A stretch of 51,211 nucleotides of DNA, the filler included, from an uncultured virus (IMG/VR IMGVR_UViG_2061766007_002667) (lineage: Duplodnaviria > Heunggongvirae > Uroviricota > Caudoviricetes). It is 4 parts of one record of this genome, joined end to end, with 100 filler letters (N's around TTAATTAATTAA, not from the genome) between each part and the next. Parts side by side here need not be neighbours in the genome. Positions count along the whole stretch, not along the records: positions 28,828 to 51,211 come from IMGVR_UViG_2061766007_002667; 3 more parts are not named here. The stretch is one strand, 5' to 3'. The notes under the pieces were generated by a model. The model ran no database searches. It was given only the letters and a program-made list of their open reading frames with translations, and had not been told where the DNA came from. Numbering within the stretch: the first letter of the stretch is position 1; each line of letters begins with the position of its first letter. Positions 13,800 through 49,945 of the stretch are shown here, piece by piece. The position numbers and the translations under genes were made by a program.

Positions 13800-14245
13800 A
13801 TGAAAACCACAAATGGAAAAAGAGTTTTACAATGGTTAAATCATTTTATTGATATGGCAAAACTTATTTCTACAATGTCTAAAGATCCTTCTAAAAAAAT
13901 TGGTGTAGTAATTGTAGATGAACATAATAGAGTAGTTTCTACAGGTTTTAATGGCTTTCCTAGAGGTATAGAAGATAGTCAAGAACGTTTAGAAAATAAA
14001 GATTATAAGCGTGCTATTACATTACATGCAGAAGAAAATGCAATATTATATGCAAAACAAGATTTAACCGGATGTGATATGTATATTTATGGTTTACCGC
14101 CTTGTTCACATTGTGCGGCTATGATTATTCAAAGTGGTATTAGAAATGTTTATTATAGAATACCAGATGAATATGAAATATCAGATCATTGGAAAGAAAA
14201 TTTAGCAATAGCTGAAACAATTTTGAATGAAGTTGGAATTAANNN
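13800..14245 (+). CDS. dCMP deaminase
   Basis: SKDPSKKIG, STGFNGFPRG, HAEENA, PCSHC zinc motifs. Stop presumed in gap 14243-14265. Confidence 0.92.
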
Positions 14246-14270
14246 NNNNNNNNNNNNNNNNNNNNAAGCG

Positions 14271-16220
14271 ATGAACATACAAATCAAAGAAATATTAAAA
14301 AAATGTAACGAAGCTTATTCTAAAGGTGAAGAATACTGTTTAAAAGATGATGAAGTACCTGTAATAGAAAATGAATTTAGTATTGTTTTACCCTATATAT
14401 TTGTAGATGATTCTTTATATGATATAATTTACTTTTGTGCTAAAGAAAAATGGCCAGAAGATTCATTTTTTAATAAATTGACTTCAGAAAATACTGGATA
14501 TGGACAAGATATTATTCATGAAATACCAATGGGTAGTATGGAAGAATTAAAAGAAGGCGATTTGGAAAAATGGACTAAAGGTCATGAGCAATTTTTAATT
14601 TCAGATAAATTAGATGGATGTTCTTTAATCCTTACATATGAAAATGGTGAATTAACCGTGGCTGCTACACGTGGGCATGGAACTAAAGGCAAAGATATCA
14701 TGAGACATGTTCAAAATGTAGGATTTCCTAAAAAAATAAATTACAAAGATAAAATAATAATTAGAGGTGAGTTATTATTTCCAAAAATCGCAATACCAAC
14801 AATATTAAATTTATTAGAGCAAGTTAGTGGCAAAAAACAAAAAAATGGTAGAAATACTATAGCCGGAGCATTAAATAGTAAAGAAACCAAACCTTATATT
14901 TTTGAACAAACAGAATTTGTAGCTTATTGGACCTCTAAGGATCAAGGTACATTAAAAGCGTTTGAATTTTTAAAAAATGAAGGTTTTATTACTCCTTTTT
15001 ATCAAATATTATCTGCTGAAACATTAACCGATGATAATATGATTGATTTAGTTAAAACTCGTATAAAATTTTCTGATTATGAATTAGATGGTCTTATAAT
15101 AACTCAATTAGATAATATTGAAAATGGATTTGTAGGTGGAACAATAAATCCAAAATGCAGTCGTAAATTTAAATTAGGTATTTATGATAATATTGCAGAA
15201 TCTACTGTTACTAATATAAATTGGCAAATAAGTAGATGGGGAGTATTTACTCCAGTATTAGAAATTGAACCAGTAAATGTTGTTGGAGCTTTAATTACAA
15301 ATATTACAGCCCATAATTATGATAATGTAATTAAATCTAAATGTGGTATTGGTTCTAAAATAAAATTTAAAAGGGCAGGTTTAGTTATTCCAAAATTAGA
15401 AGAAGTTTTAATACCTTCTGAAAACTATAATTTACCAAAATGTAAAACTAAAGTAGAAGGTGTTGATTTGGTATATATTTGGTCCGAGGATACTCCAGAA
15501 TACGCTAGAGAAATGGGTATAAGAAGACTAGAATATTTTGGTGAAAAATTAGATATTGAACAATTAGGATATGGAAATTGTGCAAAAATATATGATGAGT
15601 ATATAAATGATAATTATTTACATTTATATGATAATCCATATCGTATTTATGAGCTCCCAGAAGGCGAAATTACAAAATTAATAGGTGAGAATGGTAAAAA
15701 GATAGAAGCTAGCTTAAAAGCCAAAAAAAGTACCTTTACGGAGACACAATTTGCAGCAGCATGTGGTAGTTTTGGTCCAGACATTGGAGAAAGAGTATTA
15801 AATCTTGTTTGGAATGCTTATGGTACTTTAGAGCACATGACAGAAGAAAAATTACAAGCTTTAGAAGGCTTTGGTAAAGCTAGAATTGAGCAATATCTCG
15901 AATATGAACATTTATGGTATATGACTAAAATTCATATACAATTAAATAGTTATGGAATAGAATTTAAATCACAAGAAAAAGAAATAGAATCAACTATTTG
16001 TGCCAAATATAATGTATGTTTTTCAGGTATTAGAGACAAAGCTTTAGAAGCATATATTAATAAAAATGGTGGAGAAGCATCTGATAAATGGAATAAAAAT
16101 GTGAATTGTTTAGTAGTAAAAGATTTATATGGAACTTCTAGTAAAATAGAAAAAGCAAGAAAAGCAAATATAAGAATTTGTACTTTAGAAGATTTAAAAG
16201 AGGAGTTAAATTATGACTAG
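14271..16220 (+). CDS. ligA: NAD-dependent DNA ligase
   Basis: SDKLDG (motif I), ATRGHG, RGE, RN..AGAL, ELDGLI, OB-fold WQISRWGVFTP, HhH, C-terminal BRCT (VCFSG...SSKIEKA). Confidence 0.93.
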   Translation: MNIQIKEILKKCNEAYSKGEEYCLKDDEVPVIENEFSIVLPYIFVDDSLYDIIYFCAKEKWPEDSFFNKLTSENTGYGQDIIHEIPMGSMEELKEGDLEKWTKGHEQFLISDKLDGCSLILTYENGELTVAATRGHGTKGKDIMRHVQNVGFPKKINYKDKIIIRGELLFPKIAIPTILNLLEQVSGKKQKNGRNTIAGALNSKETKPYIFEQTEFVAYWTSKDQGTLKAFEFLKNEGFITPFYQILSAETLTDDNMIDLVKTRIKFSDYELDGLIITQLDNIENGFVGGTINPKCSRKFKLGIYDNIAESTVTNINWQISRWGVFTPVLEIEPVNVVGALITNITAHNYDNVIKSKCGIGSKIKFKRAGLVIPKLEEVLIPSENYNLPKCKTKVEGVDLVYIWSEDTPEYAREMGIRRLEYFGEKLDIEQLGYGNCAKIYDEYINDNYLHLYDNPYRIYELPEGEITKLIGENGKKIEASLKAKKSTFTETQFAAACGSFGPDIGERVLNLVWNAYGTLEHMTEEKLQALEGFGKARIEQYLEYEHLWYMTKIHIQLNSYGIEFKSQEKEIESTICAKYNVCFSGIRDKALEAYINKNGGEASDKWNKNVNCLVVKDLYGTSSKIEKARKANIRICTLEDLKEELNYD

Positions 16221-28727: not shown

Positions 28728-28827
28728 NNNNNNNNNNNNNNNNNNNNNNNNNNNNNNNNNNNNNNNNNNNNTTAATTAATTAANNNNNNNNNNNNNNNNN
28801 NNNNNNNNNNNNNNNNNNNNNNNNNNN
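28728..28827. other. Artificial scaffold-joining linker
   Basis: 44 N + TTAATTAATTAA + 44 N. Confidence 0.95.
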
Positions 28828-30929
28828 TTTGGAAAATCTTTTTCTCTCCTAGTCTTATTCCATTGTTCCACCAAAGTAAAGAACCCAACCACGCGAGTCA
28901 TATGTTGTACTTTTTTAGAATGGCAATGCGGGCATTCTTCCCAATTAGCCTTTTCTACTGTTCCACATTCTGTACATCTACTTATAACTCTATTTAATGC
29001 AAAATGTTCGCAATTAGATTCTACAGCTTTCATTATAATGGCTTTGGCCTGTGTTGGTGTTACATCAGAACCTATTGTCAAATGTGAAATAACTCCACCA
29101 GAAAGATAACGCTCATATTTACCTTCAATTCTCATTTTTTCAGCTATTGTTACATCATTCCAAAGAGGTACAAATTGATTAGCGTATAATTCTGGAAAAT
29201 TATATGGATTACCATATAATAAATTATCAGCTTTAAATAATTTTGGTGCACATGATTCGCCTGGGATCTCTTCTCGNNNNNNNNNNNNAGCTTCTATAGT
29301 ATACTCTTTAAACGCTTCGAGTATATCTAACATATAATCAAACTCATGATTTCCAAATTTATCTTTGCATATAATATCAGCTTCATATATTCCAAGCATA
29401 CCAAATGTACTAAACATCCTTCCCAAATCTATAAAACCAAGTTTAACAAATGGCTCTAATCCCATATCAGTTAACTTATACAAAAGAACTTTGTGAGCTT
29501 TTAATACTTTTGAAGCATCATCAACACGTGCTTTTAATAACTGTTTATATTCATCATAAGTATTTGCTTGATAAGCTATTCTTGCAAAATTAATTGTTAC
29601 AACTCGATGAGAACCCAGAGAAGCTCCCCCAGAACCACCAAACGAATTCATTGTAGAACCAAGCTGATCCATCATTTCTTTATCATTGATCATTCTACAA
29701 CAGGAAGCGATGCGTTCTCCGGTGGAAGTGAACAAGTTATATTTAGATATATCTTTTTTAACTATATATTCAAGCAATTCGTTGTTTTCATCTACATATA
29801 AAGTTCCATTTTCATCTTTGTGTTTAGATATATTTACTGTTACAACAGGAAAACGATAATTTATTCCGTTTTGACTCGGATCTCCTTTATCAAATAGATC
29901 AACAAAAACTTTTTGAACTTCAAAAATATAATTCACAATAAATTTTTCAAATGCCTCTTTTGAAATTTTGCCATTATCATCGCCTAATTCATTATCTGCT
30001 AATACTTTGATATTTTTTGGAAAATACCAACCGTAATTTTCATCACTAATAAAATGTGAGATTTTTTCTTTATCAAAAATAGATACATTTGTAAATGGAC
30101 TTTCTATACCATTTCTAGATAAGCTATTACAACTATGAATGAATTGCTGAAATTCATTTTCTAATTGTTTACGAAAAGCTGCATTATGTATTAATTTGTC
30201 ATAAGGAACTCTTTGCTTATATATAAGCAAATGACTTACGTCCATAAAGAAGGTTCCCAAACTTACTGCACCAGCAAGATGACTAGACATTTGATGTATA
30301 GTTTCACAAAGAGCTGCAACATAAGAACTAACTCGTTTGGCTGGTTTTGATGGCAATTGACCAAATTGCCTACCTAACATTACTATTTTAGAAGCATCAA
30401 ATGCCCAACAATATGGAATTAAGCAATTAGTACTATCCCCTAAAGCCAAAGCATAACTATACATTTCTCCCGTTATACGTTCAGCTTCATCTTTTCCATA
30501 TAATTCTTTCATTGTACGAAACAAATAATCATATCCAATTAATTTATCAAATGGTAATTCTAATTCTTTTAACGTTCCTTTTATTGATACCGAATCTTTG
30601 TTAGCATTATCATCGATACTAATATCATTTAGTTGAGTCGACATGTATTTAGCAAATTGTCCCATTGGATCAAATCTGTCATCCGATAATCCATGTAAAG
30701 CTAGCATAGCATTTACTTTTTCTGTTAACTCATCTTTATCAACTATGCCATATTCTTTTCTAAATGTTTTTACTAGTGCTCTTTTGATATGCTTCAATGT
30801 ATTAGTTGTAGAAGCATTGGCAAAAGATTCAGCCGTTAATTTAGCTAATTCTTCATCATATGTATTATCTACAATCGCTTCTGTTTGATAGTTCTTTGGA
30901 TAATTTACTTTAATGATATCTGGACTCAT
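28828..30929 (-). CDS. nrdD: Anaerobic (class III) ribonucleotide reductase, no obvious ATP-cone
   Basis: IPYC, SPFTNVS, ASCCR, VVTIN, IPGES, CxxC...CPHC zinc ribbon, glycyl-radical motif RVVGF; last codons lost at the linker. Confidence 0.93.
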
Positions 30930-30952
30930 GTCTTTGTATTCCTTTGTTATTG

Positions 30953-31453
30953 TTAAAATTTTAATATTCCATTTTCTGACAGCTTATTGTAGTTGCCGTC
31001 ATAAAAGTCTTGATTTGAGGAGGCTAGTACATATTCTTCATCTGTCTTTTTTGGGGTACGGTATTGGTCTTGAACAAATCTACCACATTTCCAGTATTTG
31101 ACGCCGTGAAGATTTAGATGTTTAACTGTATCTATGTCGTAACCTGTAAAAATACAAATATCATAGTCATTAGAGAGCGTATGGACTAAGTATTTGGTAA
31201 TTTCAAAGTTAGAGTCTAAAAGAGGATCACCGCCTAAAAATACTAGTTTATTAGTTTCAGCTCTTTTAGCAAAATTTATAAGTTTTTCAGCTATTTCTTC
31301 TTTAGTTTCTGCATATTTTACTATTTTTTGAAGTGTTGAACTATGGCATCCTGGACAATGATGAACACAGCCTGCAAAATAGAGTATAATAGCATTACCA
31401 TCAGGAGATGGATAGTCTAAAAAAGTTTCTTCTATTACAGTAGTATATTCCAT
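30953..31453 (-). CDS. nrdG: Class III RNR activase (radical SAM)
   Basis: GCVHHCPGCHS, LGGDPL, FTGY, SSNQ; adjacent to nrdD. Confidence 0.93.
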   Translation of the reverse strand: MEYTTVIEETFLDYPSPDGNAIILYFAGCVHHCPGCHSSTLQKIVKYAETKEEIAEKLINFAKRAETNKLVFLGGDPLLDSNFEITKYLVHTLSNDYDICIFTGYDIDTVKHLNLHGVKYWKCGRFVQDQYRTPKKTDEEYVLASSNQDFYDGNYNKLSENGILKF

Positions 31454-35060: not shown

Positions 35061-35936
35061 TTACACTGCTATTGGGAAATTTACTTTTTCACCATGTTTA
35101 TAATCATCTAAATTGGCCATATCATGAGTAAAATTAAATACATCAGCTTTTGAATTTAATATCAGTTTAGGTAATTCAAAAGTATTATTATAAAATTCTT
35201 TTCTATGCTCATTATAAATATCTACATGATTATCATATACATGGCAATTACAAAGATTAAATGTAATTGTTCCTGGTTCCATATTAACTGTTTGACAAAT
35301 AAGATGTAATAAAATACTATAAAATACAATATCTGTTGGTACTCCCAAAATTAAATCACAACTTCTTTGATTAACCGTCATGTGTAATCTATCATTAAGA
35401 TAATTTAATTGAAATGCATATACACATGGAGGTAAAGCCATTTTATCTTGGTCATGTAAATTCCAAGCACTTACAACTAAACGTCTATCATATTTATTTT
35501 TCTTTAAAGTATCTATAATATATTTAATTTGATCTGCACCTTTTCCAGTATAGTCAGTATCGCAATCAATATATTCTGTGCCACCAAATTTCCATTGCCA
35601 ACCATAAATAGGACCAAGATCTCTATTTTTCAACATATTTTCTTTATCACCGTATGGAACTTGATCTGGTCTACACCATTCTTTCCAATACATACATTTA
35701 GCTACTTCATATTGTTCTTTAGCTGTATAACCATGTAAAAAACATTCTAGCTCACCACAAGCACCTTTAAATGGCATTTGTCTAAATGTAGGAATAGGAA
35801 AACCATCTTTTAAATCATGTGTTAAAATTTGATTAAGTAAAACATGTGTATTATTTCCAGTACGACATGGATTAATTGTACCCTCTTCTAATACCTTATC
35901 AACTAATTTTAAATATTGAAAATCGTAATTATTCAT
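35061..35936 (-). CDS. thyA: Thymidylate synthase family protein with dCMP-type active-site residues
   Basis: CRTG, DLGPIYGWQW, DRRLVVSAWN, MALPPC, QRSCD, HVYDNH, C-terminal IAV. Has PPCV (not PCH) and GVPTDI (not PFNI). Confidence 0.92.
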   Translation of the reverse strand: MNNYDFQYLKLVDKVLEEGTINPCRTGNNTHVLLNQILTHDLKDGFPIPTFRQMPFKGACGELECFLHGYTAKEQYEVAKCMYWKEWCRPDQVPYGDKENMLKNRDLGPIYGWQWKFGGTEYIDCDTDYTGKGADQIKYIIDTLKKNKYDRRLVVSAWNLHDQDKMALPPCVYAFQLNYLNDRLHMTVNQRSCDLILGVPTDIVFYSILLHLICQTVNMEPGTITFNLCNCHVYDNHVDIYNEHRKEFYNNTFELPKLILNSKADVFNFTHDMANLDDYKHGEKVNFPIAV

Positions 35937-36529: not shown

Positions 36530-37042
36530 TTATTTTTTATTTTTGTTNNNNNNNNNNNNNNNNNNNNNNNNNNNNNNNNNNNNNNNNNNNNNNNNNNNNN
36601 NNNNNNNNNNNNNNNNNNNNNNNNNNNNNNNNNNNNNNNNNNNNNNNNNNNNNNNNNNNNNNNNNNNNNNNNNNNNNNNNNNNNNNNNNNNNNNNNNNNN
36701 NNNNNNNNNNNNNNNNNNNNNNNNNNNNNNNNNNNNNNNNNNNNNNNNNNNNNNNNNNNNNNNNNNNNNNNNNNNNNNNNNNNNNNNNNNNNNNNNNNNN
36801 NNNNNNNNNNNNNNNNNNNNNNNNNNNNNNNNNNNNNNNNNNNNNNNNNNNNNNNNNNNNNNNNNNNNNNNNNNNNNNNNNNNNNNNNNNNNNNNNNNNN
36901 NNNNNNNNNNNNNNNNNNNNNNNNNNNNNNNNNNNNNNNNNNNNNNNNNNNNNNNNNNNNNNNNNNNNNNNNNNNNNNNNNNNNNNNNNNNNNNNNNNNN
37001 NNNNNNNNNNNNNNNNNNNNNNNNNNNNNNNNNNGTTTTTAA

Positions 37043-37550
37043 CTATTTAATGCCAGTACCTTCACCAAAACCTCTTGCTCCACGCTTTGTTTTTGGACCT
37101 TGCTCATATGCTTGTTCAGAAACAAAAATTGCATCTTCATTTGAAATTTTATGAATGATACCTNNNNNNNNNNNNNNNNNNNNNNNNNNNNNNNNNNNNN
37201 NNNNNNNNNNNNNNNNNNNNNNNNNNNNNNNNNNNAACACGAATATCTTCAGAGCCTTTAACTACTTTAAATAAATTAAGATGTATCTCGCCACGGTAAG
37301 CCGCATCAATAATTGTAGCTCCAAAAATTAAGCCTCTTTTTAAAGCAATTCCGCTTTTATTATCCATTTTCATCATTTGATCTGAATTAAGCTTAATCTT
37401 AATACCTGACGGAATATTAACTTGTTCGCCAATTCTTAAAATATATTTTTTACCATTATTCCAATCATTTGGAACAAAAAAATCAAATCCGGCATTTTCT
37501 TCTCTTAACCCAGTAATGTCTTTAACATCTCTAACTTTAGTATATTGCAT
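37043..37550 (-). CDS. dut: Trimeric dUTPase
   Basis: AGFDF (I), KSGIA (II), IIDAAYRGEI (III), RGARGFGEGTG (V). Confidence 0.92.
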
Positions 37551-38116: not shown

Positions 38117-38346
38117 TGATTAATATACCTCTTAAATAATCTTTCTAATAAGGGTTTAGGTTTATCTAATTGTCTTATTTTTGAAGCTAATCGATTAATA
38201 AAATCGAGTACATCATCATTTACTTCATTGACATTCTTATCAATATTTATAGCTAATGGTCCACCAATAAAATTATTAATCGTTTCAATATTTGTTTCTA
38301 AAAGAAATTGGTCTATATTTTCTAAATTAGTCATTATTCTATCCAA
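38113..38346 (-). CDS. Hypothetical protein
   Basis: Short ORF overlapping both neighbours. Confidence 0.55.
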   Translation of the reverse strand: MDRIMTNLENIDQFLLETNIETINNFIGGPLAINIDKNVNEVNDDVLDFINRLASKIRQLDKPKPLLERLFKRYINQ

Positions 38347-39880
38347 TCTATTTCTGGTAATCCATTGTAAGACTTATCCCAAATAAACATAGCATAAGCT
38401 GCTGCACCACCATTTTTAAAAACTCTTGTATTTTTACCACAACCTTGACGATTTACATATTGCCAAACATATTTTAATTTATGATTTTTAAATAGTTTAA
38501 GGCGTCCTTTTGTTTCAAGAAAAGTAGTTTTGAGAAACATTATACATATACCATCATTATCTAACAATTCTAATGCCTTTTCTACACATTCTTGAGCATA
38601 TTTATATGGAGGATTTGTAAATATACATTTCATATAGTCTTTCCATTCTGGTCTTAATGTCTCTTTCTTTAATTTAAGAAAATCTATATTACCTTCACCG
38701 TATCCTCTATCAATCAAATCCGTAGAAAGTACATCATGACCTTGCTTAATTAATTCATCAGATATAGATCCAAGTCCACAATTTCCTGTGATAAATATCT
38801 TATTATTTCTTCTTAATATTAGCATGCCTGTTGAAACCGTAAAACAATATACGAAATCATTATAATTCTCGATTATTTTTAAATTTTTATTAATTTTACG
38901 TTTAGCCAATGTAAAATCTTTTATTTTGCTAAAACATACTATATAATTTTCATTTTCAGATCTATTATCTATAGTAATTGTACTATGTTTACCAATAGAT
39001 GCTCCAATTAATTGAATTAAATCTGCATCTTGCTTTTTATTAGTTGAATATCGTATATGCTTACTATCAAAACATCCATCCCAATAATGTAACTCTTCAA
39101 TAATAATTTCTCTATATTTTTTATCTAAGAATAACCACTCTTTTGGAAACAATTTACAACCATAAGGACTATTAAAAAGTATTTCAGTAGTATCTTTATA
39201 TTCGTATTTGACATACTCAAGATTAGCCTGTTTTAAGAGCCACAATAAACGTTGTAATTTTCGTTCTTTTTTAATACCTATTTTATATTTATTATCTTTT
39301 TCAATTCTAATTGTGCCATCGGCATTACATGCTATGGCCAATCGTAAAAACCACTCATTTAATTCTTTTCCTTCATTTTTTAAATCAAATGTTGTTGGAA
39401 TTTTACCTCTAAAACCATTTGAATCTTTATTATAAGTGTTTATTATTTCATTTGCTGTATTAATTTTTAACAAATTTGTTCTTCTTTGCTTATATACAAC
39501 TCTATGATCTTCAGTCAAACACATATCTAGAGATTTACTTTGCCAAAGATATAATTTTTTACTACTAATATGTTTAATATAATTTTTTGGATATTCTAAA
39601 TGNNNNNNNNNNNNNNNNNNNNNNNNNNNNNNNNNNNNNNNNNNNNNNNNNNNNNNNNTTCAAATCCATTATAAAACTCAGTAATAGAATCAACACAGCA
39701 AGGTTCCCATACTTTTACTGGTATTTCAAAATTACGTTCTATACATTTTTTAAAAAATAGTTGCATAGATTCAGGATGTGTACAATACAAATCATTTTCT
39801 GATACATCTTCTTCTTTTGTACGATGATTACATGCATATATACTAGTATTTCCAGTCCAATCTTTATTTTGCTCTGTCAT
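38334..39880 (-). CDS. Amino-DNA methyltransferase (NPPY; N6-adenine likely) interrupted by an intein
   Basis: N-extein ends DLYCTHP...VWEPC; C-extein begins CGLGSIS...STDLIDRGYG...IDFL...IFTNPPY. Joined exteins restore motif I WEPCCGLG. Confidence 0.88.
38781..39697 (-). mobile_element. Intein with LAGLIDADG homing endonuclease
   Basis: Starts CVDSITEFYNG; block B LTEDHRV; LAIACNADG and ELHYWDG; block F/G VYCFTVSTGMLILRRNNKIFITGN followed by Cys(+1). Confidence 0.9.
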
Positions 39881-39885
39881 TTTTT

Positions 39886-42800
39886 TTATTCTCCACTTTC
39901 TTCATAAGTATCTTTATATTTATTCCAATAATGATATTTAGCTTTAATTGTATAAATATGATTTTTTTCTAATTTAGCGGGAATCATTTTTAATAATTCT
40001 TCCATAGAAACTTGTGATATTAAAATTGGAGATAACTTTTGACAAGCATTAAAACGATTACCTTCTGACCAGTCTTGACGTTTAATATGTCTTTCTAATG
40101 CTTTAATATCTACTTTGCCTTTGTATTGTGTAGGTTGTTTTAATTCATCTTTGAGTTTAGGCATGTTTTCCAATATTTCAATTAAATTAAATTCATATTT
40201 ATTTTCACTATATAATGTTTGCATTTCATTTGTTTTTGGATTAATTTGATCTGGAGTACGCGTATATCTATTTGGTTGAGCACATTGTTGATCTGCATTT
40301 TCTAAACCTAATTTATAAGCTAGATAATACCAAATTTTTTTAAATGAAGTACTAGTTACAGGAGCACTTAGTCTAACTACAATATGATAACTTCTATGAC
40401 CAGACCAAACAATACGATATGTATATTGTTCTATTTGTTTAATTAATTCTTCTTGTTCTTCTTTCGTTAGATAATCACATTCAAATAAAAAGTTTTGACA
40501 TACAACCCCACTTTTTGTAGGATATTGATCNNNNNNNNNNNNNNNNNNNNNNNNNNNNNNNNGTAAATAAGCAGGCTCCTCTACTTTTGTATAATTAATA
40601 TCATAATATGGACCAAATACTTCTTTTTTATTTAATAAGTTTTTGGCAAAATTTATATATTCTTGTGTATTAATTTCATCCATACTTAAATTATTAATAT
40701 CATCAACAATAAGCATATGTTCTGTAAAACCAGTAATTTTTGAAATAGAATTAATAACTTCTGTTAATTTATTACCATTTTCATCAGTAACTGCTTTTCC
40801 TTTTTCATCTTTTATGACTACTTCTCTTTCATTTCTACTACGACTATAATATGCTTGAGTGCGTGGATCATTTTCTTTACCAACAACAAAAGCTAAACTA
40901 CGACCTTCAACTTTTTTATTAGTAATAGCATCATAAATTTCACCAACACTATGTCGTTTATAAATTACAAAATCTCTTGGCATAACACCTTCTAATAATG
41001 GTTTATGAGTCACAATATTGCATAAGATTTTTGAAGTTGCTTTGCCAAATTTTTCATTTGATAAATAAAAACCTTTAGATTTAACTTTTCCGTTTAAAAA
41101 AGCGCAATAATAATTATTTACATTATTTTGTTGAAGAATTTTAATTTCATCAAATTCAAGTACTAGGCGTGTCTCCTTCATCCATTGCTCACAAATAGGC
41201 ATATAATCTACAGTTTCTTGTTTTTCAATCATTATACCATCAGTATTTGTTTGGACAATATTAAACCCAGCATCAAATAATCTTCGGCATAAAATAAATA
41301 ATAACAATTGACCGTGAACACATACTGTACTATTTGACCATGTATCATACAATGGATTAAACTCAGAAAGCATAGCACCAATTGCTCCGTTTAAAACTAA
41401 TTTTAAACCTTGATTAAGAAGCGTTTTTCCAGTATGTTTGGCTTCAATACGAGTTTCATAAACTTGTTTATATGAATCAGGATTAGCTGCTGCACCGCGT
41501 GACATTAAATTATATTGAATTAACAATGAAGGATAAAGAGAAGCAACATCCATATTTACTAAATTTTCTGAACCATAATTAAGTAATGCTTGATGTAATC
41601 CACCGAAACCAAATTGATACAAATGCCCTTCATCATCTCCTCCCATATAATATTCAAATTTTTCTCTAATATAATTTGGATTATGTTGATTTTTTAAATA
41701 AAAGTCTAAAATTGGTGTATTTGCNNNNNNNNNNNNNNNNNNNNNNNNNNNNNNNNNNNNNNNNNNNNNNNNNNNNNNNNNNNNNNNNNNNNNNAGCATT
41801 TTCACCACAAAGAACTTTTCCAGCAAAAGAGGAAGATTTTGTAATAAGATTTAAAGCTTTCATTTTATATTCTACAATAAGATTCCATTTAATATCATAA
41901 GAATCTCTTGCATATTCACGCATTTTATATTTTGGATCTTCTTCTTTCTTTTTAACATCCTCTGGATCTGGTAAAAATAAATCTAAGGTATTATCAACGT
42001 CCATTTCACAATATTCTTCAACTTCTTTTCTTTGTTCTTCTGTCAATGGTGTTGTAATATCAAAAGGTACTGTTGAATCATAATTTTTTCTATCTAAAAC
42101 AGACATTGTAAGCTTTTTAAGTGAATTTCTTCTAATATCAAAAGGTAAATGAAAACTAATATCCCAAGAAATAAAATTAGGAGGAGTAATATCTTCAATT
42201 ATTTCACCATCTACATTAAAAGCATATCCATTTTTGTATTCTTTTATTTTATATTGCGGTTTAACTTCAGGATACCTGTCTAAGTTTTCTTCATCTAAAA
42301 CCAAAGCGTCTGAAAACTCTTTAACGGTTTGAGTACCTTCAATAGTATAAGGATAAATCATAGCATGTTTAATAACCTTATCATCATATCCAGCATTATT
42401 AAATCCAATAAGTATTTTATCTTTAAGCCAATTTCTTAAACTATCACCATCATTCCAACAAATTATTTTGTTCTTTTTATCTAAAGTTTTGGCAACAAAA
42501 AGCCAATCATATTTAAAAACTTCAATATCATATACCCATTCATATCTATCTTTAATATTATAACCATCTCTACGAATTTGATTATCAGACATTTTTGGTC
42601 CAATTGCTGGCTTAAATGCTTCTTTGTACCATTTATTATACCATTCAGACTTTTTACCGTTTGGATTATTTTCATCACCAAAAAATTTAAAGCTTTTATG
42701 CAAATTATCAAAAGAATATGATTCTACTTCATCTTGTGAAATTAGAGTAACTTTATTAAAAAGATTAAATTTTGTTAATGCTTTCTCTACATTTTTACCA

Positions 42801-43569
42801 TATAAAGGTACTGTTGTTAATAATTCATTAAAACTTATTTTATATTCTTTATTGAATTCGTTAGCGTCTGGTGCCTCTTGTTTTTTATAAGCTAACTCAA
42901 TTTTAGAAAAATTATCACTTAAGGTATAATACTCAACATTTTCAAAGCTATCTAATTTAAAATCTAATTTAAAGCCTTTTATAAGATTAAGTTTAAAAGC
43001 TTTAATAATAAATTGCATCTTCGTTATAATTTTTTCAGTAGTTGTATATGGTGATTCATTTGTATTTATTCCTAATTCTGTATTATTTAANNNNNNNNNN
43101 NNNNNTCATTAACTTCAGGCAAAATTACGAAAGGAATATTGAATTCATTATGATTAAGTTTATAATCAAATAAATTTAAATAATCTTTATAAACTGTTAA
43201 TTTTCTTATGTTTAAATCTGTACTAGAATTATAACTTTCTTTAAACGCATTAAATGCAGATTGTCCAATAAATCCAATTAGAAGATTATCTTTATCAAAA
43301 GCTTCTTTAGTATTATATTCTTCTAATCTTACAAATAATACTTTTCTACTAAATTCTGTATTATTTTCATCATATANNNNNNNNNNNNNNNNNNNNNNNT
43401 TGAATTTACTCTTAAAAACAGTAGATAAGTATTCCATACCTTTAACTGAATCAAAAATGCAATATTTATCATTTTGTAAAGGTTTATCTGCTATTAATAA
43501 TAATTTTAATTTTGATGAACATTCATATTCTTTAATATTTCTATTTATTATATCAACTTCTTTTATCAT
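39886..43569 (-). CDS. Family B DNA polymerase, probably with N-terminal UDG-like domain and C-terminal AEP primase domain (reconstructed across gaps)
   Basis: ExoI YDIEVF, ExoII GFNNAGYD, ExoIII YCEMDV, motif A MDVASLYPS, B KLVLNGAIG, C NTDGI. C-terminal NFLFECD, SGHRSYH, ADQQC..NRYTRTP. Frame is open upstream of ATG 43018 to the gap at 43091. Confidence 0.85.
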
Positions 43570-43637: not shown

Positions 43638-43886
43638 TTAATTTTCATTTNNNNNNNNNNNNNNNNNNNNNNNNNNNNNNNNNNNNNNNNNNNNNNNNNN
43701 NNNNNNNNTAATAACATGCGTAATCGCTTTGGTATCAAAACCAGCAGATTTAGCTTCTAACATAATACCTTTACGATCTTCTTTTAATTCTTGAATTTCT
43801 TGATCTAAATTTTCAATACGTTCAATAATTGATTTTAAACGTTCTGTATTTAAACCACCAACTTCAATATCTACTTGATCTGTCAT
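43638..43886 (-). CDS. gapR: GapR/DUF2312 (UPF0335) DNA-binding protein
   Basis: RLKSIIERIENLDQEIQELKEDRKGIMLEAKSAGFDTKAITHVI matches the family consensus. Confidence 0.88.
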   Translation of the reverse strand: MTDQVDIEVGGLNTERLKSIIERIENLDQEIQELKEDRKGIMLEAKSAGFDTKAITHVIXXXXXXXXXXXXXXXXXXXXNEN

Positions 43887-43893
43887 TTTTAAT

Positions 43894-44184
43894 TTACTCC
43901 ATAATTAAATTAGATTTGTGAAAATTACAAACATTACCATCTTTAAATTTTTTAACACCCATATATGATTTTAATGTACCAATATATTTAGTTTTTCCAT
44001 CAATATGTTTATTAAGTTGTACACAAGACGGTTTACCTTTATTTAACTTTAAACTTATTGTATAACCATTATTAACTAATTCATTATATACTTTAAATGG
44101 AAGAGTAATAACATTATCTTTTTTAAGTAAAGTTGCATATTCTTCTTTAGTTTTTCTTTTAAACAATTTAAAAATATTAAACAT
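43894..44184 (-). CDS. Hypothetical protein
   Basis: Intact ORF, AGGAG RBS. Confidence 0.65.
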   Translation of the reverse strand: MFNIFKLFKRKTKEEYATLLKKDNVITLPFKVYNELVNNGYTISLKLNKGKPSCVQLNKHIDGKTKYIGTLKSYMGVKKFKDGNVCNFHKSNLIME

Positions 44185-44198
44185 TTTTATTCTCCTTT

Positions 44199-45266
44199 TT
44201 ATTCAATAATTTCACCAGTTTCTGGATCATAGTCAGGTGTTTCAGTGTCTTCAGTAATAGTTTTTTCAACATTTGGTTTCATAAGAATCTCTTTTACCTT
44301 TTCCATAACAAAATTCTTAATATCTTGATGTTCTTCTAGCCAAGTTTTTGCTTTAATTGAACCTTGACCAATATTTTCACCATTATACTTAAACCAACCA
44401 CCAGCTTTTTCAATAATACCAAATTCTACTGCCATATCAAACATTTCATTATCAGCGGAAAAACCTTTACCATAATAAATCATAATTTCAGCTTTTCTAA
44501 ATGGAGGAGCTAACTTATTTTTTTCAGTACTGACAGAAATTTGATTAGCTATAACATCTCCTTCTTTATTTTCTTCTTTTTGTGATTGTTGCCTACGAGT
44601 ACGACATATAATAGATGCAAAAAATTTCTGAGCTTCACCACAAGGTAATACAGAAGCATCACCATATTTACCAGGGGCTTGTCTCACTTGATTTGTACAC
44701 ATTAAAGCACAATTAGCCATTTCTAATGCTGGAGTAACTTGTTTAAAGAAAGAACTAAATAATTTAGCTTGACGACCAATGTTCATGTCAGCCAATTCAC
44801 CTTCTAATTCACTAGCTGGTACACAAGCAACAATAGAATCAAGAATAATTAAATCAGCCGCTTTTTCTTGAGCAAGTAATTTAATAGCTTCTAATGCTTG
44901 CTCACCTCCATCCGGTTGTAATAAAATTAATTCTTTCATATTACAACCAAGATTTTCAGCATAAATTGGATCTAAAGAATGTTCCATATCAACATAAGCA
45001 CAAACTAAACCTTGTTTTTGAGCATTTGCAACAGCTTGAAGGCAAATAGTACTTTTCCCCGAACTGTAATCGCCCCAGATAAGAGTAACACGTCCTCTTG
45101 GCCAACCACCAATTCCTAAAATTTTATCTAATTTTAAAGAACCAGAAGAAATAACATCGACTTTAGTAATTCCAACATTATCAAAAGTCATAGCAGCATC
45201 ATCACCAAACTTTTTTCGTAATAACGCAAGAGCAGAATTAACTCTACTATTACTTTTATCTTCCTT
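44199..45266 (-). CDS. recA: Recombinase RecA (start in gap)
   Basis: SSGSLKLD.ILGIGGWPRGR, GDYSSGKST, DMEHSLD, QPDGGEQAL, NQVR, KNKLAPPFR; frame extends upstream (ALALLRKKFG) to the gap. Confidence 0.95.
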   Translation of the reverse strand, partial: KEDKSNSRVNSALALLRKKFGDDAAMTFDNVGITKVDVISSGSLKLDKILGIGGWPRGRVTLIWGDYSSGKSTICLQAVANAQKQGLVCAYVDMEHSLDPIYAENLGCNMKELILLQPDGGEQALEAIKLLAQEKAADLIILDSIVACVPASELEGELADMNIGRQAKLFSSFFKQVTPALEMANCALMCTNQVRQAPGKYGDASVLPCGEAQKFFASIICRTRRQQSQKEENKEGDVIANQISVSTEKNKLAPPFRKAEIMIYYGKGFSADNEMFDMAVEFGIIEKAGGWFKYNGENIGQGSIKAKTWLEEHQDIKNFVMEKVKEILMKPNVEKTITEDTETPDYDPETGEIIE

Positions 45267-47701: not shown

Positions 47702-49057
47702 TTAAGCCAATGTATCTGGTGGAGTTGGATCGTTATCTTGAAGTGATTTTTCTACTTCTTTTGCTTTATAAAATGGACCTACTTTATCTAGCATTTTTTT
47801 GACCGTAGAGCATATACTTTCACTTTCGAAGTCAACTAAACCTTCTGGAACATCTTGCTTACCACGGAGTAAAATACGAGCAATAAGCTGGCCTAATTCA
47901 AAGCACATGGACTCATTAAAACCACGAGTCGTAATTGCTGGAGTACCAAGACGAATACCTGATGGATTTTTAGAATCTGTATCACCAGGAATAGTATTCA
48001 TGTTACATACTATATGATAATTTTTGAGTAATGTTTCTGCTTCTTTACCAGTTAAATTGGCTTTTTTAACATCAATTAATACTAAATGTGTATCAGAACC
48101 ACCAGATACAAATCGTAATTTTTGTTCTGAATTTATTGATTGAATACCGTGAATCAAAGCTTTCATGTTTTTGATAATCTGTTCAGGATATTTATACCAA
48201 TGTGGTTCATCGGCTTCTTCCAAAGCTGCACAAACACCCGCTAACATATTAACAAGTTGTCCACCTTGAAGAAAAGGAAAACAAGATAATCTAATAAATT
48301 TCATATATTCTTCTGAGTTTGTTACAATTATAGCATGACGTCCACCACGCATTGTTTTATGTGTAGTTGTTGTAATAACAGGAATAGCCAATGGACCATA
48401 ATCAAATTCTAATGGATTAGGATATTGTCTTCCAACAACTAACGCTGAAGGATGAGAAATATCAAATACTAAAACTATTTCTTCCTTTAATGCTTTTACA
48501 TAATCTGCTATTTTTTGATAATCTATGATTCTTGAATAAGCTGAAGTACCAACAGTAAGAATAATGTGTTTTCCTTTATTTTGTAACAAAAGTTGATGAA
48601 TTTCTTCGTAGTTAATCAACTCATTTTCATCTAAACCATATTGATGACTTTCAAAATTTTTACCAGTAATTGAAGGTTTAGAAAAGTGACTTAAATGTCC
48701 ACCTGCACTAAGCTTTTGTCCAATACCAACTATTTCTTCAGATTTACATTTCCAATATTTAGTTGCAGCTTCATATACTATTAAATTTGCTGAAGAACCT
48801 GAATGTGGTTGTACACAACTATATTTACCGTTATATAATTTACATGCTAATTCTTGACAATTTTTTTCTAATTCGTCAACAAACTCACAACCTTGATAAT
48901 ATCTAGCCCCTATTTCACCTTCTGAATATTTATTTTGTATAGGATGACCACAGCATTCTAATACATATTCCGAACAATAGTTTTCACTAGCTATTAAGTT
49001 AATTTCATTGTTTTGACGAGTTAATTCATCATTTAAAATTTCTTTTACTGTTCTCAT
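47702..49057 (-). CDS. glyA: Serine hydroxymethyltransferase
   Basis: LIASENY, NKYSEG..ARYYQG, QPHSGSSAN, GGHLSH, TTHKT (PLP lysine), SGIRLGTPAITTRG; own AGGAG RBS and ATG at 49057. Confidence 0.95.
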   Translation of the reverse strand: MRTVKEILNDELTRQNNEINLIASENYCSEYVLECCGHPIQNKYSEGEIGARYYQGCEFVDELEKNCQELACKLYNGKYSCVQPHSGSSANLIVYEAATKYWKCKSEEIVGIGQKLSAGGHLSHFSKPSITGKNFESHQYGLDENELINYEEIHQLLLQNKGKHIILTVGTSAYSRIIDYQKIADYVKALKEEIVLVFDISHPSALVVGRQYPNPLEFDYGPLAIPVITTTTHKTMRGGRHAIIVTNSEEYMKFIRLSCFPFLQGGQLVNMLAGVCAALEEADEPHWYKYPEQIIKNMKALIHGIQSINSEQKLRFVSGGSDTHLVLIDVKKANLTGKEAETLLKNYHIVCNMNTIPGDTDSKNPSGIRLGTPAITTRGFNESMCFELGQLIARILLRGKQDVPEGLVDFESESICSTVKKMLDKVGPFYKAKEVEKSLQDNDPTPPDTLA

Positions 49058-49114
49058 TAAATTAAATCTCCTNNNNNNNNNNNNNNNNNNNNNNNNNNNN
49101 NNNNNNNNNNNNNN

Positions 49115-49945
49115 ATACTTGTTGAGTTTAAAATTATTTTTATATTCAGAATCCCATATATAAATAACTCGAAACTCATTATCAGCAAAAAAAGTAAATC
49201 TTCTTAATGTTTCGTAATATAAATCTATAAAACGCTTTTTGTTTACTTTGTTTATACCATTTCCTTTATACAATCTTGGATTACCATGCCAATAATCACC
49301 CAAATATTCATAAACAGTACGCTCTATCCAATCTATTCCATCAACTATAAAAGTATATTCTCTATTTTTACCAACACCTGCTATTTTATATTGTCTCCAC
49401 TTTGCTGGTATTTCCATTTCATTAAGCCAAGCTTGTTCTCCGGTTGAAACTGAACTTGAAGAAAAATATTTTTTTCCTTTGATTGCATTTATTTTTGCTA
49501 AACGAATAGGTTTATTAATTTTGTAATATTTTAATAATCTTTTGACTTGATATTCTGAAATATTTAATTTTTCAGCCAATTGCTTACGTGTTAAATTTTG
49601 ATTTATATATAAATCGTTTAAAAAATTCTNNNNNNNNNNNNNNNNNNTAGATTTTACAGTTTCACGTGTCAACATTTTTGCAGCTTTTATATCTTTTTTA
49701 ATGTTATACAAAGTTAAATCATGTCTAACATTATTTTCAAGTACATTGAAAAACGAGGCTGTTTCTTTTTCACTACAGTTACATGTTATATAAACATAAT
49801 ATAATTCATCTTTTGGAATTAATTCACTCTTTTTACCATATATATTTCTTCTTAATCTAAACAATGGATTTTGATAATAATCACGAGAAATTTTAGAAAG
49901 ATCAATATTCCTACGCTCTATCAATGCTTTAACTTCATCAATCAT
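49115..49945 (-). CDS. HTH-repeat + Vsr/DUF559-like endonuclease (homing-type)
   Basis: Two HTH-like repeats (LYINQNLTRKQLAEKLN), then STGEQAWL, IVDG, YEYLGDYWHGNP, VIYIWD; stop presumed in gap. Confidence 0.78.

Follow-up and report, generated by a model that had tools for sequence, protein, structure and literature searches.

A predicted deoxycytidylate C5-methyltransferase on a thymidylate synthase scaffold in ruminant-gut jumbo phages

A 51-kb stretch of DNA (51,211 nucleotides, here called the window) from an uncultured tailed phage (IMG/VR IMGVR_UViG_2061766007_002667) contains an intact open reading frame (ORF) of 291 codons on the minus strand at 35061-35936. The window is that of an AT-rich phage genome, with 26% G+C outside its 8,730 masked bases. 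The ORF encodes a 291-residue protein of the thymidylate synthase (TS) fold, which is probably a folate-dependent deoxycytidylate (dCMP) C5-methyltransferase, that is, a 5-methyl-dCMP (5mdCMP) synthase with EC 2.1.1.54 activity. The observations behind this assignment are the fold of the protein, the residues of its active site, their fixation in a clade of natural homologues and the gene content of related phages. An earlier note on this DNA had put forward such an enzyme and a deaminase route to thymidylate. Natural dCMP methylases with aspartate at position 177 (E. coli numbering) and the deamination route are already described in two papers (PMC8670742; 10.1101/2024.12.05.627091). The two diagnostic positions, the concept of the dCMP methylase and the deaminase bypass are thus known, and what is new is a separate lineage derived from ThyA, carried by jumbo phages of the ruminant gut, together with its folate-cycle setting.

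To pair residues, the TS-fold protein was aligned with E. coli K-12 ThyA (b2827, NC_000913), the TS homologue of Xanthomonas phage Xp12 and T4 gp42, each drawn from an annotated record. The T4 numbering in this alignment agrees with the published names Cys148 and Asp179, and the alignment was considered checked on this account. The TS-fold protein contains MALPPCVYAFQ and QRSCDLILGVPTDIVFY, where E. coli ThyA reads MALAPCHAFFQ and QRSCDVFLGLPFNIASY. The catalytic Cys171 is followed by Val172, which pairs with H147 of E. coli ThyA, P166 of the Xp12 enzyme and T149 of T4 gp42, and Asp202 occupies the position of Asn177 (Table 1). The earlier note had assigned both codons in this way, had quoted the same E. 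coli motifs (the gene in NC_000913 reads identically) and had placed an aspartate at the equivalent site of T4 gp42 (D179), and the alignment agrees on every one of these points. A canonical deoxyuridylate (dUMP)-specific ThyA (EC 2.1.1.45) is recognized by Asn177 and His147, and here both are replaced. Removal of the histidine beside the catalytic cysteine further aids the dCMP activity of engineered TS. A phage dCMP C5-methyltransferase is expected to combine Asp177 with a non-acidic residue at 143 and a retained Asp169, and all three are found, as Asp202, Leu168 and Asp194.

These positions have been singled out in published work. In the MetaGPA study (eLife 2021, PMC8670742), 433 phage TS homologues were aligned, and cytosine modification of the contigs is reported to be associated most strongly with positions 177 and 147, the modified set carrying mostly Asp177; according to the works cited there, TS of E. 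coli and L. casei in which this Asn is mutated to Asp prefers dCMP. When seven Asp177 homologues were expressed with T4 gp1, five gave 5-methyldeoxycytidine (5mdC) in vivo, and so did the Xp12 enzyme used as the positive control, as described in a 2024 bioRxiv paper (10.1101/2024.12.05.627091). A 2026 paper in Nucleic Acids Research (PMC13326640) relates position 143 to the product, with a bulky Leu in enzymes that form methyl products and Asp or Glu in those that form hydroxymethyl products (T4-like enzymes and, likewise, MilA). The same paper reports Asn169 as the mark of flavin-dependent 5-hydroxy-dCMP synthases, namely RB69 gp48, DLP3 gp80 and nine further tested homologues. In the present alignment the residue of T4 gp42 equivalent to position 143 is Asp145. 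Because Leu143 is kept in the TS-fold protein, a methyl rather than a hydroxymethyl product is predicted, and because Asp169 is kept (Asp194, invariant in the clade alignment) the enzyme does not appear to be a 5-hydroxy-dCMP synthase. In combination, Asp177, Leu143 and Asp169 predict the reaction dCMP to 5-methyl-dCMP. The earlier note had allowed either 5-methyl-dCMP or hydroxymethyl-dCMP as the product, and of the two the in silico evidence at position 143 favors the methyl form.

Apart from these substitutions, the scaffold is that of a canonical ThyA by sequence and by model, as the earlier note had also read it. The PF00303 (Thymidylat_synt) profile matched residues 7-291 over profile positions 2-266 of 266 (E 1.2e-70, 238 bits), the PHROG match is phrog_160 and solved TS chains in the PDB were matched at E 8e-52 and weaker. 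An AlphaFold (AF2) model built from 30 clade sequences has a mean predicted local distance difference test score (pLDDT) of 95.6. In Foldseek, template modeling (TM) scores of 0.90-0.91 were obtained over the whole chain against the human, Babesia and white spot syndrome virus TS, and 0.90 against 5HS3. The protein keeps the equivalents of R21, E58, W80, W83, Y94, R126, R127, L143, C146, Q165, R166, S167, D169, G173, H207 and Y209 (E. coli numbering). Among them, the catalytic cysteine and the phosphate-binding arginines (E. coli C146, R21, R126', R127' and R166) are C171, R25, R151, R152 and R191, and the deoxyribose-binding H207 and Y209 are His232 and Tyr234. The hydrophobic C-terminal tail ...FPIAV is retained; this PIAV tail and the equivalents of W80, E58 and Y94 are parts of the closed reductive site, whereas T4 gp42 (246 residues) lacks the tail. 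E. coli ThyA is 35% identical and has its length class, fold and catalytic residues in common with the window enzyme except at 147, 176 and 177, where the latter has Val for His147, Thr for Phe176 and Asp for Asn177; the further scaffold differences, counting F176T, are D205N and T206C. A search for near-identical DNA in cultured phages found none, the best TS of a cultured phage being 36% identical, and isolates thus offer no proxy for this phage.

Relatives of the TS-fold protein were sought among 5.8 billion proteins. The search returned 42 sequences of 49-89% identity, followed by a drop to at most 43%. In all 42, PPC is followed by V, L, M or I, and then come P-[T/A/S]-D, NCH[IV]Y and CRTG[ND]. 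Of the 78 matches listed after these (P0044-P0121, 38-43% identity), all but the Asp-bearing P0084 and P0090 carry the canonical PPCH/PFN, and the nearest canonical relatives are 38-43% identical ThyA proteins of candidate phyla radiation (CPR)/DPANN-type metagenome bins. A library of representatives at 50% identity added one further clade cluster only (P0122, 53%), its next match being at 37%. A tree of 83 sequences was then considered, rooted on T4 gp42 and including ThyA and Xp12 as the earlier note had envisaged. In this tree the clade of 45 sequences (P0001-P0043, P0122 and the gene of the related genome G001 described below) is monophyletic with a support of 0.963 and is placed within canonical ThyA, apart from Xp12 and T4. 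Asp at 177 and a residue other than His (V/L/M/I) after the catalytic Cys are both present in 45/45 members, and since the pair is fixed throughout the clade it reflects more than chance or error. The enzyme is proposed to have evolved from an ordinary ThyA. Besides Asp, the clade-specific changes are Cys24, Thr/Ala/Ser201 for Phe176 and Asn230-Cys231 for Asp205-Thr206.

DNA of this phage is present in gut metagenomes of cattle and other animals. X1, the likely source sample, gave three short pieces only, and it is not counted here, nor is X2, which may have the same origin. Among assembled contigs from other studies, X3 and X4 cover both codons and X6 covers the Val codon only. No change at the Asp or Val codon of these contigs was found among 40 of the 75 listed differences; Asn or His codons, which the earlier note had named as evidence that would tell against it, did not appear there. 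A sub-clade of 27 sequences (P0014-P0038) reads PPCLHTWQ and P[A/S]DM..QG, with Leu for His147 and a His one position later, and this displaced His possibly compensates or retunes the site. Over the whole tree, Asp177 forms occur in at least eight separate places among Asn177 forms. Six homologues (P0090, P0144, P0149, P0199, P0173 and P0251) have Asp177 with His147 kept, are otherwise canonical and are scattered among the Asn177 forms; they may be further independent dCMP enzymes.

Xp12, a siphovirus with a 64-kb genome that infects an aerobic plant pathogen, has DNA in which cytosine is fully replaced by 5-methylcytosine (5mC). Its deoxycytidylate methyltransferase (MT664984, 45326-46195) resembles the window enzyme in the TS fold, the catalytic Cys, Asp at 177, the non-His residue at 147 (Pro166) and the retained Asp169 but differs in sequence (22% identity), in Asn at 143 and in its C terminus. 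Like the relatives of the window phage, Xp12 encodes a dCMP-deaminase-family protein and dihydrofolate reductase (DHFR). In Xp12 the genes for TS, deaminase and DHFR lie side by side, whereas in the window phage and its relatives they are scattered over a jumbo genome. Common descent of the two enzymes is not reflected in the tree, where Xp12 lies outside all canonical ThyA and the window clade is nested within them. The window enzyme is thus predicted to work like the Xp12 enzyme but to be a separate lineage. The Asp177 homologues of the MetaGPA and bioRxiv studies (PMC8670742; 10.1101/2024.12.05.627091), compared here by residue signature, share the 177/147 signature and a predicted, partly verified 5mdCMP product, and those studies propose, as is done here for the window phage, that thymidine nucleotides are reached through a deaminase. 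In that set, 70% of the deaminases are reported within 3 kb of the TS gene, whereas the window deaminase is ~21 kb away. The engineered E. coli N177D and L. casei N229D enzymes (cited in PMC8670742) also methylate dCMP after a single Asn-to-Asp change on a canonical scaffold; the window enzyme, by contrast, is a natural, long-fixed variant with further clade-specific changes. T4 gp42 has the corresponding Asp179 and Cys148, uses dCMP and is partnered with a gp1-type deoxynucleoside monophosphate (dNMP) kinase. It differs from the window enzyme in being 20% identical, in its length of 246 residues, ending ~45 alignment columns earlier, in Asp145 at the 143 position and in its hydroxymethyl product, which is formed without folate oxidation.

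Six related IMG/VR records carry genes of the clade. G001 (227,383 bp, CheckV completeness 95%) has a TS orthologue of 84% identity. Being collinear with the window but circularly permuted relative to it, G001 was used in place of the whole genome; its contig ends map within the window DNA polymerase region 39886-43018. Among the other five (G002-G006), G003 is 98% and G004 93% complete, so that three of these relatives, phages with genomes of ~230 kb, are near-complete (93-98%) and three are fragments. The earlier note had suggested looking beyond the gene for a second ThyA or ThyX, a dNMP kinase, DHFR and a dCTPase. Each of the six records has exactly one PF00303 match, and neither a second ThyA (by PF00303 profile search) nor ThyX was found in any of the six. 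DHFR is encoded by 3/3 near-complete relatives and 0/3 fragments. Serine hydroxymethyltransferase (SHMT) was found in 5/5 related records searched and the dCMP-deaminase family in 4/5, in addition to the window copies of both. Folate is oxidized by a methylase but not by a hydroxymethylase, and DHFR is needed only where a TS-fold enzyme oxidizes it. Because these genomes have one TS homologue each, a phage DHFR has work to do only if that homologue oxidizes folate; of the arguments from context, the conserved DHFR of the near-complete relatives speaks most strongly for methylation rather than hydroxymethylation.

The order of genes at the locus is kept in 6/6 relatives: a dUTPase-family gene (1.1 to 4.7 kb upstream of TS), a variable slot, the TS gene and NrdG-NrdD. 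In G001, G003 and G006 the slot holds the kinase that the earlier note had suggested, a T4-gp1-like dNMP kinase (PF21448; in G001 at L006:2754-3392, DNMK E 3e-14). In G002 and G004 it holds a PF18909 dATP/dGTP-diphosphohydrolase-type protein (L018:8827-9198 and L020:9216-9611), a candidate enzyme for clearing deoxycytidine triphosphate (dCTP); G005 does not differ from G004 in the stretch that was compared. G001 L006:3385-3963 was considered as a homologue of the L020 hydrolase and rejected (BLASTP E 0.018). A gp1-like dNMP kinase is a T-even hallmark, and the kinase or PF18909 neighbors of the TS gene support modification at the level of the nucleotide pool. The dUTPase-family protein is divergent, its G001 orthologue reaching 45 bits where the NCBIfam dut model has its cut-off at 102, and the window gene is a candidate dUTPase, possibly a dCTPase. 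The suggested dCTPase has candidates in the window (dUTPase family) and in G002 and G004 (PF18909). The deaminase orthologue in G001 matches human DCTD and the Paramecium bursaria chlorella virus 1 (PBCV-1) dCMP/dCTP deaminase 7FH4, matches that are silent on any 5-methyl preference, and the window domain is a candidate 5-methyl-dC nucleotide deaminase. A thymidylate route through a phage dCMP deaminase, as proposed in the earlier note, has a candidate family member in the window. However, the characterized deaminase mSCD-B5, whose gene is linked to such a TS homologue, is reported to convert 5mdCTP to dTTP and not to act on 5mdCMP (10.1101/2024.12.05.627091); the authors state that this route bypasses the need for a second thymidylate synthase.

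From these elements we infer the substrate and product of the enzyme, the presence of 5mC in the phage DNA, the dCTPase role and both the deamination step and its substrate, which would fit together as follows. The anaerobic ribonucleotide reductase would deliver dCTP, and a pyrophosphatase, either the divergent dUTPase-family protein or, in some relatives, the PF18909 enzyme, would return dCMP. Cys171 would attack C6 of dCMP, while Asp202 would read and protonate N3/N4 of cytosine where an Asn would read uracil. In the closed TS-type active site, 5,10-methylene-tetrahydrofolate (5,10-methylene-THF) would give its carbon and then a hydride, so that the products would be 5-methyl-dCMP and dihydrofolate. 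The folate would be recycled by phage SHMT (window) and DHFR (related genomes). The gp1-like dNMP kinase, present in some relatives and masked in the window, and the host nucleoside diphosphate kinase would phosphorylate the product to 5mdCTP, and the phage polymerase would build this into DNA as a restriction-resistant base. The phage deaminase probably turns part of the 5-methyl-dC nucleotide pool into thymidine nucleotides. A bolder and distinctly tentative extension is that these rumen jumbo phages do without dUMP-dependent thymidylate synthesis altogether. One dCMP methylase, with SHMT and DHFR, would then be the source of all C5-methyl pyrimidines; 5mC would replace C, and T would come from 5-methyl-dC nucleotides deaminated by the small PBCV-1-like enzyme beside the ligase. 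A variant of this scheme has a bispecific dCMP/dUMP enzyme.

Several observations weigh against the assignment as a dCMP methylase. The enzyme shares only 22% identity with that of Xp12 and groups elsewhere in the tree, and for this reason its activity is read from residues rather than from close homology to a tested enzyme. In the bioRxiv series (10.1101/2024.12.05.627091), two of the seven Asp177 homologues are reported to have given no 5mdC. The Leu143 rule is termed only a correlation by its authors (PMC13326640), and it is not strict, since the proven Xp12 methylase has Asn162 at this position in the present alignment. The protein passes TIGR03284, a thymidylate synthase equivalog model (182 bits against a cut-off of 108), and scores below the cut-off of each of the seven other NCBIfam TS equivalog models. 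The thymidine kinase of G001 and the dUTPase-family gene of the phage fit an ordinary thymidylate (dTMP) economy too, and of DHFR, SHMT and the dNMP kinase, which are seen in the relatives, SHMT alone is readable within the window. Part of this evidence would suit an enzyme that still makes dTMP, either an ordinary TS tolerating Asp or a bispecific enzyme for dUMP and dCMP that is the only source of T and 5mC in the phage. The absence of another TS homologue in the related genomes, the otherwise fully canonical scaffold, the TIGR03284 score and the two possible producers of dUMP (the dUTPase-family and dCMP-deaminase-family proteins) are all compatible with it. It is nevertheless unlikely: the E. 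coli and L. casei mutants with Asp for Asn are reported to switch to dCMP (cited in PMC8670742), the fixation of Asp together with the loss of His147 in 45 sequences looks like adaptation to a new substrate, and T could also be supplied through thymidine kinase, the deaminase or the host ThyA.

A dCMP hydroxymethylase like T4 gp42, in which water rather than hydride would resolve the exocyclic methylene and 5-hydroxymethyl-dCMP would be formed for later decoration of the DNA, is quite unlikely. T4 gp42 also has Asp at 177 and has lost His147 (D179 and T149), some of the relatives encode a gp1-like dNMP kinase and the Leu143 rule is, as said, a correlation. However, the window enzyme has Leu168 where T4-type enzymes have Asp or Glu, and it retains the complete TS C terminus, including the PIAV tail, which closes the site and which gp42 is without. 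The DHFR that accompanies the sole TS homologue in all three near-complete relatives is not required for hydroxymethylation. Moreover, no match to a DNA glucosyl- or carbamoyl-transferase or Tet/JBP was found at Pfam E 1e-5 among 282 ORFs of G001 (those of at least 70 residues lying wholly within one of the 20-kb pieces scanned); a single family 2 glycosyltransferase (GT2) lies ~90 kb from the TS gene. The same scan of G001 gave no C5 DNA methyltransferase or MazG/PRA-PH match. Other chemistries of the superfamily, flavin-dependent 5-hydroxy-dCMP synthesis of the RB69 gp48 type or modification of cytidylate (CMP) of the MilA type, are very improbable. Both enzyme types carry Asp at 177, but they have an acidic residue at 143 (PMC13326640), where the window enzyme has Leu. 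The D169N change found in all tested 5-hydroxy-dCMP synthases is absent, the equivalents of the deoxyribose-binding residues are kept, and the gene stands within a phage block of deoxynucleoside triphosphate (dNTP) metabolism.

If the dCMP methylase assignment is correct, ~230-kb T4-like phages of the ruminant gut replace cytosine with 5-methylcytosine at the level of the nucleotide pool. This would affect the resistance of these phages to host restriction and CRISPR-type nucleases and the way their DNA behaves when rumen viromes are analyzed by bisulfite, enzymatic conversion or nanopore. The phages would also be a source of enzymes to mine, namely methylases, polymerases and ligases that tolerate 5mC and deaminases selective for it. 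What is gained is a further lineage with its genomic setting rather than a new principle. Because the ordinary ThyA scaffold has undergone the Asn-to-Asp switch many times, a recurrent change of function goes unseen under the automated annotation "thymidylate synthase".

Table 1. Coordinates of the TS-fold gene, its diagnostic codons and other nucleotide-metabolism features of the window
Feature	Position	Strand	Basis
TS-fold gene, predicted dCMP C5-methyltransferase (5mdCMP synthase)	35061..35936	-	PF00303, PDB matches, AF2, Foldseek
Asp202 codon GAT (E. coli Asn177, T4 gp42 Asp179, Xp12 Asp196)	35331..35333	-	Alignment; 45/45 clade members
Asp194 codon (E. coli Asp169; Asn here marks 5-hydroxy-dCMP synthases)	35355..35357	-	Alignment and rule of PMC13326640
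Catalytic Cys171 (35424-35426) followed by Val172 GTA (35421-35423), for E. coli Cys146-His147	35421..35426	-	Alignment
Leu168 codon (E. coli Leu143, correlated with methyl rather than hydroxymethyl product)	35433..35435	-	Alignment and rule of PMC13326640
Slot of the T4-gp1-like dNMP kinase of relatives	36530..37150	-	G001 collinearity; 487 bases masked (N 36548-37034), gene unreadable
Divergent dUTPase-family gene, 72 bases masked	37149..37550	-	PF00692 E 3e-6; phrog_135
dCMP/cytidine deaminase-family domain	13800..14240	+	PF00383 E 4e-18
NAD-dependent DNA ligase, same frame as the deaminase domain	14271-16220	+	LigA domains
SHMT, maker of 5,10-methylene-THF	47702..49945	-	PF00464 E 1.9e-98, residues 299-686
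Anaerobic ribonucleotide reductase NrdD (28776-30929) and activase NrdG (30953-31453)	28776..31453	-	PF13597 E 6e-65; PF13353, PF04055

The deaminase domain and the DNA ligase read as one ORF of 806 residues (13800-16220), with a junction that spans 23 masked bases (14243-14265). G001 encodes them separately, with 244 bases between the two genes and a ligase that is longer by 37 residues at its N terminus. The SHMT domain lies within an ORF of 747 residues whose N-terminal part matches the HNH endonuclease family phrog_8446 (residues 93-148). SHMT has 449 residues in G001, and in four relatives its match falls in two pieces within one open frame, a layout that suggests a homing-endonuclease or intein-type insertion. 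The phrog_9968 label "methyltransferase" on the same ORF was rejected, the protein being SHMT, and so was the phrog_799 label "methyltransferase" at 38334-39524, which has no Pfam support. NrdD is a single ORF of 717 residues in the window, and in G001 (L006:9741-13024) it is represented by two ORFs (587 and 144 residues) followed by a GIY-YIG/NUMOD3 homing endonuclease.

DNA polymerase matches (phrog_1252) at 39886-43018 on the minus strand are split over two overlapping ORFs around the masked bases 41725-41794. At 43638-45191, also on the minus strand, a bacterial-type RecA (PF00154 E 6e-74; UvsX-like in PHROGs) stands beside a GapR-like DNA-binding protein (PF10073). G001 has T4-like capsid, portal and baseplate genes. 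Over L007-L016 it encodes GroEL/GroES, DnaJ, two ClpP, Hsp20, GMP reductase and an acyl-carrier-type protein, as well as F420-glutamyl-ligase-like and QueC-like proteins and an intein-containing ORF of 1045 residues.

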